A stretch of DNA of 54,416 nucleotides, taken from NCBI GenBank assembly GCA_964432675.1, contig CAYSOG010000004.1:30002-84417 (forward strand), read 5' to 3'. Of the stretch, positions 20,797-21,074 are shown in pieces. The translations under genes and the position numbers were made by a program. The number at the start of each line of letters is the position of its first letter. Position 1 is the first letter of the stretch. Below the pieces are notes generated by a model. It ran no database searches. It saw only the letters and a list, made by a program, of their open reading frames with translations, and had not been told where the DNA came from. This DNA is from an uncultured Gammaproteobacteria bacterium. Its GTDB lineage: Bacteria; Patescibacteriota; Microgenomatia; CAYSOG01.

Positions 20797-21063
20797 ATGG
20801 CACAGCGACGAACACGAGCGCAGGCACAGGGTGGAGCAGCGGCCGCCGAACCGACGACGTTTACCGTTGAGGTCGCGGAAATGCTGGCCGAACCGGTGAC
20901 ACTCACGGTTCGGGAGGGCAGCAAGGTAAGTGACGTCTTGCGCGAGGCAAACGTCGACCCAACCGGCCGTACGGTGACAATCCGTGGCCAGCGTGTCGAT
21001 CTCGACCAGGTTGTTGCGGCGCACGACCAAATCGTGGTTACTGGCCGCATTCGCGGCGGCTAA
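20797..21063 (+). CDS. Ubiquitin-like (beta-grasp, ThiS/MoaD/Ub-type) protein ending in Gly-Gly (cassette 1)
   Basis: ATG 20797 with AAGGAG 7 nt upstream aligns with paralog 24177 start (track start 20749 is less likely); 88 aa, ends RIRGG-stop; 1 Lys, about 10 Arg. Confidence 0.7.
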   Translation: MAQRRTRAQAQGGAAAAEPTTFTVEVAEMLAEPVTLTVREGSKVSDVLREANVDPTGRTVTIRGQRVDLDQVVAAHDQIVVTGRIRGG

Positions 21064-21074
21064 CCTTTCTGGTT
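21064..21074 (+). promoter_or_regulatory. Conserved 3' box CCTTTCTGGTT (anti-SD-like), copy 1
   Basis: Immediately after the Ubl stop; exact reverse complement of AACCAGAAAGG in the leader element (17767-17777, 21292-21302); identical at 24456-24466. Confidence 0.6.

Follow-up and report, generated by a model that had tools for sequence, protein, structure and literature searches.

Pairing between the untranslated regions (UTRs) at the 5' and 3' ends of one bacterial messenger is documented for the hbs mRNA of Bacillus subtilis, in which a 14-nt helix of -19 kcal/mol is formed just upstream of the terminator and compensatory mutants prove the pairing (Braun, Durand and Condon 2017, PMC5737220). 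In the icaR mRNA of Staphylococcus aureus, a UCCCCUG motif of the 3'UTR base-pairs to the Shine-Dalgarno sequence (SD) and blocks initiation (Ruiz de los Mozos et al. 2013, PMC3868564). Moreover, 8-mers complementary to the ribosome binding site (anti-RBS) lower mRNA levels when they are present in the 3'UTR of B. subtilis reporters, RBS-complementary sequences repress both mRNA level and translation from hundreds of nucleotides away, and anti-RBS sequences are normally depleted (Gill et al. 2025 preprint, PMC12697547). As a consequence of this depletion, a conserved anti-RBS sequence implies selection for it.

Here we analyse a stretch of 54,416 nucleotides (the window) in which an 11-nt box following the last gene of two ubiquitin-like (Ubl) conjugation cassettes is complementary to the leader of the same operon. 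Judging from the sequences, we give a probability of about 60% to the reading that a long-range RNA helix links the 5' leader and the 3'UTR of one operon mRNA, with the 3' box as its downstream arm.

Both cassettes are composed of four genes, encoding an E2-like protein, a JAB peptidase, an E1 enzyme and a Ubl protein (Table 1). The E1 matches the ThiF profile with E = 1.8e-19; the E2-like protein has a PADLOC E2 match (E = 8e-4) and an HPH..C motif; the Ubl is SAMP2-like with GG at its C terminus; the Prok-JAB match of the JAB protein is weak (E = 1e-3 to 6e-3, under the curated cut-off). The TTG starts of the E2-like genes are backed by conserved N termini, MVQYLYAG and MPDYLYPG in the two cassettes, VVEYLIPG and MVAQYLIPG in relatives. 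The gene set resembles that of Bil and Bub operons, which also carry Ubl-GG, an E2 whose active-site motif is HPH...C, a JAB peptidase and an adenylating E1 (PMC10557695, PMC11601596). It differs in the E1, which is minimal here (223-227 aa, a single ThiF domain) and has the IAD-AAD-CYS architecture in Bil (PMC11601596), in having neither a DUF6527 protein nor any of the fusions of Bub, and in the N-terminal extension of about 340 aa carried by the E2-like protein. No regulatory RNA element was found described for the Bil and Bub families in the literature searched.

A protein search with the whole E2-like sequence returned no word-sharing homologue except itself, a metagenome scan just four loci, distant or short, and a viral scan just distant ThiF relatives on marine phage contigs. 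The sequence itself was found in low-depth soil DNA contigs only, with no match in RNA runs. Minus-strand open reading frames opposite Ubl (20688-21050 and 24126-24494) were rejected as antisense genes; their frames differ relative to Ubl, and they are explained by the Ubl G+C content of 62-63%. According to a Pfam scan, the neighbours of the cassettes encode a mannitol dehydrogenase, a GDSL hydrolase, a kinase-like protein and a methyltransferase.

Table 1. Coordinates of the cassettes and of the other units sharing their leader design (positions in the window; promoters and terminators are predicted)
Feature	Position	Strand	Remarks
Predicted promoter, cassette 1	17653-17681	+	TTGACT-17-TATAAT; 11/12 consensus matches
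Leader motif GCACGTTAACA, cassette 1	17756-17766	+	within conserved leader block 17748-17783
5' box AACCAGAAAGG, cassette 1	17767-17777	+	contains SD AGAAAGG of TTG-initiated E2-like gene
Cassette 1 coding region	17785-21063	+	
Cassette 1 E2-like	17785-19251	+	
Cassette 1 JAB	19202-20005	+	start uncertain
Cassette 1 E1/ThiF	20005-20676	+	
Cassette 1 Ubl	20797-21063	+	ends GG-stop
3' box CCTTTCTGGTT, cassette 1	21064-21074	+	after Ubl stop; complementary to both 5' boxes
Intrinsic terminator, cassette 1	21088-21123	+	13-bp stem, 8 G-C pairs, T6 run
Predicted promoter, cassette 2	21165-21193	+	TTGCAT-17-TATAAT; inferred by eye, -35 under scan threshold
Leader hairpin then T run, cassette 2	21251-21271	+	just 5' of motif; attenuator-like
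Leader motif GCACGTTAACA, cassette 2	21281-21291	+	within conserved block 21273-21308
5' box AACCAGAAAGG, cassette 2	21292-21302	+	SD of TTG-initiated E2-like gene
Cassette 2 coding region	21312-24455	+	
Cassette 2 E2-like	21312-22769	+	
Cassette 2 JAB	22738-23475	+	
Cassette 2 E1	23453-24136	+	
Cassette 2 Ubl-GG	24177-24455	+	
3' box CCTTTCTGGTT, cassette 2	24456-24466	+	
Intrinsic terminator, cassette 2	24476-24518	+	homologous to terminator 1, one compensatory pair
W4 leader (two-gene unit unrelated to Ubl cassettes)	10314-10335	+	motif GTACCTTAATA 10314-10324, 5' box ATTTGAATTCC 10325-10335
W4 3' box GGAATTCAAAT	13031-13041	+	11 nt past last stop (13017-13019), 28 nt before terminator hairpin 13070-13118
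W3 leader (unrelated unit of four small ORFs)	36052-36074	+	motif GCACGTTAACA 36052-36062, 5' box TTGTGAGTAA 36065-36074
W3 3' box TTACTCACAA	37386-37395	+	8 nt past stop 37375-37377, 14 nt before terminator 37410-37434

The sequence ATTCGCGGCGGCTAACCTTTCTGGTT (26 nt) is present in two identical copies, 21049-21074 and 24441-24466, with no third, zero copies being expected in shuffled sequence. Its first 15 nt are the terminal Ubl codons ATT CGC GGC GGC TAA (I-R-G-G-stop); its last 11 nt, starting at the base directly 3' of the stop codon, exactly match the reverse complement of AACCAGAAAGG, which lies in the leaders of both E2-like genes. An exact search thus confirmed the identity and the complementarity that a previous sequence-only reading had reported, and in the window it found AACCAGAAAGG only at the two 5' boxes on the + strand and its reverse complement only at the two 3' boxes. 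The same reading had placed the SD within the leader segment, and indeed AGAAAGG lies 7 and 9 nt upstream of the TTG starts, a normal spacing, and provides 7 of the 11 paired bases; AGAAAGG is also found 6-9 nt 5' of two further ORF starts, 41311 (+) and 52132 (-). The helix would be exactly 11 bp long, with a mismatch at either end of it in each cassette, and the 3'UTR up to the terminator measures 20-25 nt. The statement that the flanks diverge immediately holds for the spacer of 9-13 nt only; beyond it the terminator arms, GCCCGGTGTTTCT and GCCCGATGTTTCT, are near-identical again, with one compensatory change from G-C to A-U.

The two cassettes are old paralogues, with protein identities in the range of 32-55% (E2-like 32%, Ubl 50%, E1 55%), third-codon identity of 31-38% and saturated synonymous sites. 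The 3' block is identical at 26/26 positions and the leader block at 33/36; given the age of the paralogues, these islands must be being maintained. The idea that the boxes are relics of the duplication junction is disfavoured both by this saturation and because a tandem duplication gives direct, not inverted, repeats. Gene conversion between the cassettes could contribute to the identity of the boxes: the E1 genes share an identical run of 33 nt whose nucleotide-level conservation is absent in relatives, indicating that short conversion does occur. The box-terminator spacers of the two cassettes are unrelated in sequence, which is evidence against a single conversion tract.

The same design recurs in other units. 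A module made of the leader motif G[CT]AC.TTAA.A, a box of 10-16 nt beginning 0-2 nt later and the reverse complement of this box between the last stop codon and the terminator is present in four units of the window, named W1 (cassette 1), W2 (cassette 2), W3 (36052/37386) and W4 (10314/13031), and in two related cassettes elsewhere, L061 and L150. GCACGTTAACA has three exact copies and one 1-mismatch copy in the window, all four with a box 0-2 nt later, and the box pairs start at 17767/21064, 21292/24456, 36065/37386 and 10325/13031, the complements lying 0-11 nt past the last stop of the unit. Across nine aligned leaders G.AC.TTAA.A is invariant, and the motif is directly 5' of the helix in every module case. 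The complementarity extends over 11 nt in W1, W2, W4 and L061, 10 nt in W3 and 16 bp in L150, and across the module units the 3' arm follows the stop by 0-21 nt and precedes the terminator by 6-28 nt; the window holds only the two paired W3 copies of TTGTGAGTAA. In W2 and W3 the motif is preceded by a leader hairpin. In W3, W4, L061 and L150 the box is 10-130 nt upstream of the SD, which is uncovered. Other 1-mismatch copies of the motif (1523, 15389 (-), 33256, 37917 and 41197) have background complements only, of 7-9 nt. A role of the motif as a sigma-54 or other promoter was rejected, no copy having a GC at -12 or a -10 hexamer 16-18 nt away.

The position of the complement within the operon was assessed by scanning every 15-nt window of each operon against its own leader. 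Sites no more than 45 nt past the last stop ranked first among 3278 windows in W1, second among 3143 in W2, first among 3093 in L061 and first among 3968 in L150. A top site after the stop is expected in about 1% of operons, and three among nine independent lineages correspond to a probability of about 1e-4 by our own binomial estimate. An earlier scan of the 45 nt after the stop against the operon was swamped by the G+C-rich terminator arms and was uninformative.

Five distinct box sequences occur among the module units, only the adjacent motif being constant. All 50 helix cells are paired (49 Watson-Crick, one G-U) and all ten positions vary on both sides, in an alignment assembled by hand from segments picked for complementarity, so that the pair count illustrates the covariation and does not test it. 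This covariation between units favours an RNA helix that joins the 5'UTR to the 3'UTR, and the G-U pair, located in the L150 helix, fits RNA pairing rather than DNA identity. The related cassettes L061 and L150 pair with other box sequences; six related lineages (L058, L059, L064, L145, L148 and L065) have no complement above background. NC10/Chloroflexi-type operons likewise have no better-than-background complement, and the pairing is not a family-wide trait. Weaker complementarities in L059 and L148 were discarded, falling in a terminator arm or in an untranscribed promoter spacer, as was a 10-mer in L009 that is absent from its close relatives.

Duplex energies agree with the pairing of leader and 3'UTR put forward in the sequence-only reading: the box duplex alone is computed at -17.7 and -18.2 kcal/mol in the two Ubl cassettes, and for the three units computed the module duplexes lie between about -16 and -18 kcal/mol. 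Local folds of the leaders leave the boxes unpaired. In minimum free energy (MFE) folds of predicted full-length mRNAs the helix is formed by all five units folded, and blocking the 3' box costs 10.6 (W1), 9.4 (W2), 12.1 (L061), 2.9 (W3) and 6.3 (W4) kcal/mol; these costs are constrained MFE differences, and MFE folds of 3-kb RNAs are unreliable; the thermodynamic preference for the helix is a computed one. Rfam gave no match in the window at gathering thresholds, and sub-threshold terminator-like matches only (E up to 1) in the cassette region.

The recurrence of the design points to a repeated means of control over whole operon mRNAs that makes use of both their ends. If the predicted promoters and transcript ends place the two boxes on one transcript, the motif (G[CT]AC.UUAA.A in the RNA) would be followed by a variable box whose exact complement would be offered by a short single-stranded stretch between stop and terminator, and the helix formed in the cell might act on translation or decay. 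In the Ubl cassettes, where 11 bp span 3.3 kb, the 5' arm would include the SD of the first gene, so that in a completed transcript the helix would hide this SD and reduce initiation at the E2-like gene. As long as transcription and translation of the operon go on, the leader is free, and repression would thus be possible on finished mRNAs only. The helix would probably also alter nuclease access to the leader. Since the box directly adjoins the stop codon of Ubl, ribosomes that terminate on the last cistron would be expected to cover the helix and open it; since the boxes of the two cassettes are identical, a rare read-through RNA or the mRNA of the other cassette could mask leader 2. RNA pairing of the 3' box with the leader was the first of three options proposed in the sequence-only reading, and duplex energy, operon ranking and MFE folds make it the best supported of them. 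Its emphasis on the SD was too narrow: two unrelated operons of the window and two relatives have a box distinct from the SD, so that SD masking is special to the Ubl cassettes and not the general purpose of the design.

A fuller scheme, which we regard as speculative and rather unlikely to be correct, is that Patescibacteria possess a reusable clamp on the ends of operon mRNAs. The motif would mark the site used by a nuclease or by an RNA-binding protein, and the unit-specific helix would gate access to it; in the Ubl cassettes the clamp would hide the first SD and abut the last stop, and ribosomes finishing Ubl would reopen initiation on the E2-like gene, coupling the synthesis of both partners and cross-linking the cassettes.

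The alternative that survives best, although we consider it doubtful, accepts the helix and gives it a role in mRNA stability or processing as in hbs: the helix would control access to a nuclease site located in the motif or next to it, or would protect the RNA ends, the overlap with the SD being incidental. The uncovered SD of W3, W4, L061 and L150 is in agreement with such a role, as are the constant place of the motif immediately 5' of the helix (the RNase Y site of hbs likewise overlaps the 5' arm, PMC5737220) and the beta-CASP ribonuclease-like protein encoded in the window at 52262-53629. However, pairing in the Ubl cassettes engages the SD itself and cannot avoid blocking 30S binding, and no cleavage site is known for the host organism.

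It is improbable that the box chiefly insulates cassette 2, with 3' box 1 pairing to leader box 2, 217 nt downstream, and silencing the second E2-like gene whenever terminator 1 fails. This would account for the cassette boxes staying identical, and the predicted fold of the read-through RNA 21040-21330 does pair 21064-21074 with 21292-21302 in both MFE and centroid structures (z = -5.0), in support of the read-through variant of the first option. On the other hand, terminator 1 looks strong, the 3' box of cassette 2 finds no partner further downstream, none being present in the next leader (24520-24600), and the single-copy W3, W4, L061 and L150 carry the same design without a tandem neighbour.

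The view that the complementarity has no function is slightly weaker still. The leader box would be kept as an SD, the 3' block by gene conversion or termination context, and their match would be due to chance; in fact, an 11-nt inverted repeat is by itself commonplace, about 85 exact pairs within 5 kb being expected by chance in the window, the identical patch in E1 looks like conversion, and pairing is absent from most relatives. The significance of the 11-nt pairing lies in its position, both arms being in the sole conserved non-coding islands of old paralogues, and by our own estimate a match between just those two islands has a chance of about 1e-4. Against chance stand also the conservation of the four non-SD bases AACC/GGTT and the recurrence of the arrangement, with other sequences, in W3, W4, L061 and L150, where it keeps its place relative to the motif.

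Least probable of all is that the boxes act as DNA, either as half-sites of one binding protein bracketing the cassette (the second option of the sequence-only reading) or as recombination sites for inversion or mobility: perfect inverted repeats do flank gene blocks that are themselves promoterless, the promoter lying beyond the repeats, L061 has a palindromic box (AGTCTAGACT) and GAATTC occurs within the box of W4, but five unrelated sequences at equivalent positions mean that no single sequence-specific protein reads them all, the Ubl cassette box is without dyad symmetry, the L150 arms have a G-T mismatch at the DNA level, no recombinase, transposase or HTH gene is adjacent by Pfam, and contigs from four soil metagenome runs (depth only 2-7x, coverage fragmentary) contained no inverted or excised form and no joint at the boxes.

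If the long-range helix is real, pairing between mRNA ends would count as a regulatory device that can be reused and not as a curiosity, and motif plus box would be a sequence signature by which uncultivated CPR bacteria could be searched for such mRNAs. The helix would also provide a testable handle on how a ubiquitin-like conjugation system keeps its first enzyme low, by combining a TTG start with an SD that is both weak and masked.

Compared with the anti-RBS reporters of Gill et al., which used synthetic 8-mers at distances up to about 0.8 kb in one reporter, the Ubl cassettes have a natural, conserved 11-mer 3.3 kb away. They share with icaR a pyrimidine-rich, anti-SD-like 3'UTR segment complementary to the SD of the same mRNA, a feature absent from W3, W4, L061 and L150, and by analogy a block of the initiation complex would be expected in these cassettes. 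The icaR 3'UTR is long, reportedly 390 nt, and its duplex is cut by RNase III; here 20-25 nt separate the stop from the terminator and the helix has 11 bp, which is too short for RNase III. Moreover, the masked gene here stands first among four cistrons, and the box comes after the last of them, abutting its stop.

The closest likeness is with hbs. Both have a short, fully complementary helix (14 nt in hbs, 10-16 nt here), a 5' arm just 3' of a leader hairpin (here in W2 and W3) and a 3' arm just 5' of the terminator, and in both the 5' arm adjoins a specific leader site, the RNase Y cleavage site in hbs and the motif G[CT]AC.UUAA.A here. The helix described here, in an uncultivated member of the Patescibacteria (CPR), is known from sequence and predicted folds, and in the Ubl cassettes its 5' arm is the SD itself. 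While hbs is a single small gene, the helix here would close polycistronic operons of 1.3-3.3 kb, and several operons of one genome share the design, flagged by a common motif. What is new is that four transcription units of one 54-kb stretch and two related cassettes have this design in common, closing operons of up to four genes.

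On the + strand of the window two cassettes of four genes each stand in tandem, W1 and W2 (cassettes 1 and 2); the table lists their features. The E2-like protein gives a PADLOC E2 match at E = 8e-4 and weak PDB matches to UBE2L3. In either cassette the leader is roughly 100 nt long. The TTG starts of the E2-like genes are fixed by N-terminal conservation, mutual and with relatives, and because relatives likewise often use GTG for this gene (L058 at 1424, L145 at 765, L148 at 160), weak initiation seems, from the sequences compared, to characterise the family. G+C content is 62-63% in the Ubl genes, compared with 44% in the whole window and 44-51% in the remaining cassette genes; long spurious antisense ORFs result. 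In relatives (L058, L059, L061, L145, L147, L148 and L150) Ubl precursors extend 2-26 residues beyond GG (GGAV, GGTI, GGMAS, GGVR, GGAKI, GGATKI, and GG plus 26 aa); both window Ubls end exactly at GG, so that processing would be unnecessary. The host belongs to the soil Patescibacteria (CPR), given that its SufB shares 83% identity with proteins of that phylum and that the window sequence is present in soil metagenome runs. Positions 52262-53629 encode a beta-CASP metallo-beta-lactamase ribonuclease-like protein, which matched aCPSF1 and Cas14-type models below cut-offs and is a candidate RNA-end nuclease of the same genome.

Features of the two cassettes (W1, W2) and of two unrelated units of the window (W3, W4); single numbers are first positions
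Feature	W1	W2	W3	W4	Details
Predicted sigma-70-like promoter	17653-17681	21165-21193			W1 TTGACT-17-TATAAT, promoter scan; W2 TTGCAT-17-TATAAT, read by eye from sequence
Leader motif			36052-36062	10314-10324	W3 exact, W4 one mismatch
5' box	17767	21292	36065-36074	10325	W1, W2 on + strand
First-gene start codon	17785	21312			TTG
First gene product					485-488 aa; C-terminal part E2-like; motif HPHV...G..C
JAB peptidase					second cassette gene; weak matches
E1					minimal, ThiF-type, 223-227 aa; E about 1e-19
Identical run in E1	20332-20364	23792-23824			33 nt
Ubl	20797-21063	24177-24455			beta-grasp protein, 88-92 aa; C-terminus GG-stop
26-nt block	21049-21074	24441-24466			ATTCGCGGCGGCTAACCTTTCTGGTT
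3' box	21064	24456	37386-37395	13031-13041	reverse complement of 5' box
Strong intrinsic terminator	21088-21117	24476-24509

The repeats that the sequence-only reading had described were recovered: block ATTCGCGGCGGCTAACCTTTCTGGTT has exactly two exact copies, and the 11-mer AACCAGAAAGG has four in the window, two in the leaders and two, as reverse complement, after the Ubl genes. Its further claim that the leader box covers the Shine-Dalgarno (SD) sequence also holds, since AGAAAGG lies 7 and 9 nt before the TTG starts of the E2-like genes; this heptamer is also found at normal spacing before two further ORF starts, 41311 (+) and 52132 (-). The block opens with the 15 nt of the I-R-G-G-stop codons of the small protein, and the 3' box CCTTTCTGGTT starts at the first base past the Ubl stop codon. 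About 85 exact 11-nt inverted pairs no more than 5 kb apart are expected by chance in the window, so the repeat is significant solely through the location of its arms.

The cassettes are old paralogues, as judged from their divergence: protein identity is 32% for the E2-like protein, 55% for E1 and 50% for Ubl, third-codon identity is 31-38%, and only 30-45% of identical amino acids use the same codon. Between them the 3' block is kept at 26/26 positions and a 36-nt leader block includes a perfect run of 25 nt; the terminator arms are near-identical, with one compensatory change (G-C to A-U), and the box-terminator spacers and terminator loops are unrelated. Such islands are more readily explained by selection acting on separate elements than by a single gene-conversion tract. 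Conversion between the cassettes nevertheless seems to occur: the run shared by the E1 genes, GTGATTTGCTGTGTTGATAACATGGCAACCCGC, encodes VICCVDNMATR, a peptide that relatives retain while matching just 20-25 of its 33 nt, and in the window paralogues, otherwise saturated at synonymous sites, it looks like a short conversion patch. One low-depth contig of metagenome run X2 places 18222 next to 21263, leaving out 3040 nt; its short side measures only 22 nt, and it is probably an assembly chimera of the paralogous cassettes.

A protein search found no word-sharing homologues of the E2-like protein, and relatives were therefore reached via E1, which gave 53 genome loci spread over many phyla; the closest metagenome proteins, at most 58% identical, were fetched together with their contigs. 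The order E2-like, (JAB), E1, Ubl is widespread among them. L065 (1057-7076) and L150 (1131-7078) have a variant architecture, in which an AAA ATPase gene lies upstream and an additional gene separates E2-like from E1. In L059 (5768-7886) and L147 (2341-3589), ruvC-ruvA(-ruvB) follows directly downstream of the cassette in the same orientation. Leaders of the CPR subgroup share the motif G.AC.TTAA.A, which has no Rfam match and is invariant in 9/9 aligned leaders; the terminator stem ..CCC[AG]GTG...CA[CT][CT]GGG is conserved as well. The stem sequence is common to both window terminators and to the 3' ends of L058, L059, L064, L065, L145, L147, L148 and L149, contigs whose proteins are only ~50% identical; several of these terminators share an inner ACTCT-loop-AGAGT hairpin, and several have a CTAGAC element just upstream. 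An attenuator-like hairpin with a T run precedes the leader motif at 21251-21271, ~36026-36044, L059 ~2453-2478 and in the L064 leader; its role may be that of a leader terminator, or of a hairpin flanking the 5' arm as in hbs.

The longest perfect complement between leader and 3' UTR reaches 11 nt in W1, W2 and the related cassette L061; every other pair, whether same-locus or cross-locus, gives 4-8 nt. The L061 box AAGTCTAGACT stands in the leader directly after GCACATTAAC, with a second copy 21 nt past the Ubl stop; its 10-nt palindrome AGTCTAGACT has only those two copies within 12.7 kb. In a position-free test, all 15-nt windows along an operon were scored for pairing with the leader of that operon (-40 to +5). 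Among all windows of the operon, the top-scoring one no more than 45 nt past the last stop had rank 1 of 3278 in W1, 2 of 3143 in W2, 1 of 3093 in L061 and 1 of 3968 in L150, and rank 68-632 in the remaining six operons. Since 3'UTR windows are only about 1% of all windows and 3/9 independent lineages are positive, we estimate the probability at roughly 1e-4. In L150 the leader segment AAUUAAAGAACAAUUC (3068-3083) pairs over 16 bp, one of them G-U, with GAAUUGUUUUUUAAUU (7082-7097), which begins 4 nt past the stop. No such pairing was found in the NC10, Chloroflexi and similar operons, and in six related lineages no 3' partner accompanies the leader motif or the operon.

At the sequence level, the arrangement extends beyond the Ubl cassettes. 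A third exact window copy of GCACGTTAACA lies in the leader of W3, an unrelated unit of four small ORFs, where the box TTGTGAGTAA follows two bases past the motif; its sole other window copy is the reverse complement, located downstream of the last stop codon (by 8 nt) and upstream of the terminator (by 14 nt). The motif variant GTACCTTAATA lies in the leader of W4, an unrelated two-gene unit, immediately followed by the box ATTTGAATTCC, whose reverse complement stands 11 nt past the last stop and is followed by a long terminator hairpin. Of the exact 10-mer inverted pairs whose arms are both intergenic, only W1, W3 and W4 have a 5' arm that directly follows the motif, most others being low-complexity terminator tails or promoter -10-like sequence. 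Moreover, of 27 motif instances in all sequence examined, only W1-W4 and L061 combine a complement of 10 nt or more, an offset of at most 3 and a partner in the 3'UTR.

When the five different boxes are lined up by distance from the motif, 50/50 helix cells pair (49 Watson-Crick, one G-U) and 10/10 positions change on both sides; having been assembled from segments already found complementary, this alignment illustrates the pattern, and the actual tests are the 15-nt-window scan and the motif/box recurrence in unrelated units. The box duplex energy is -17.7 kcal/mol in W1 and -18.2 in W2. MFE folds of the predicted full-length mRNAs, weak evidence for kilobase RNAs, contain the helix in W1, W2, L061, W3 and W4, where forbidding the 3' box costs 10.6, 9.4, 12.1, 2.9 and 6.3 kcal/mol, respectively. 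When the leaders are folded locally, the 5' box of W1 is single-stranded; for that of W2 the MFE structure shows only a short pair and the centroid none.

The sequence, position, conservation and covariation of the boxes are observations, and their best reading is that the 5' leader of an operon mRNA would be joined to its own 3' UTR by an RNA helix. Both boxes would be co-transcribed, the helix would form in cells, and it would lower E2-like translation or alter decay; ribosomes terminating at the Ubl stop would cover the abutting 3' box and reopen it. As long as transcription and translation are coupled the leader stays free, and any effect would therefore concern finished mRNAs. The anti-SD option proposed earlier is partly supported; its emphasis on the SD was too narrow, and the sequences widen it to a recurring 5'/3' end-pairing module.

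A serious alternative is that the helix acts in stability only, the SD overlap being incidental. Two other options of the sequence-only reading are disfavoured: half-sites of a common DNA-binding protein, because five unrelated sequences occupy the box positions and the adjacent motif alone is constant, and a duplication relic, which should have decayed given the age of the paralogues and should be a direct repeat. We found no support for boxes bounding invertible or mobile DNA, with no recombinase gene among the neighbours and no variant joint in the reads, which are thin. Pure chance is unlikely in view of the scan ranks and the motif/box recurrence in unrelated units. Although 3' box 1 pairs with leader box 2 in the predicted fold of read-through RNA 21040-21330, a role in read-through control only fails, being unable to explain the box after cassette 2 or the single-copy units.

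The closest precedent for the proposed leader/3'UTR helix of these operons is the hbs mRNA of B. subtilis, in which 14 nt immediately past a leader hairpin pair with a fully complementary stretch immediately ahead of the terminator (-19 kcal/mol) and the helix restricts RNase Y cleavage at an overlapping site, with compensatory mutants as proof (PMC5737220). Also in B. subtilis, anti-RBS 8-mers in the 3'UTR lower expression (PMC12697547). In icaR, 3'UTR/SD pairing blocks initiation (PMC3868564), and as the 5' arm doubles as SD in the Ubl cassettes, this mechanism should apply to them too.
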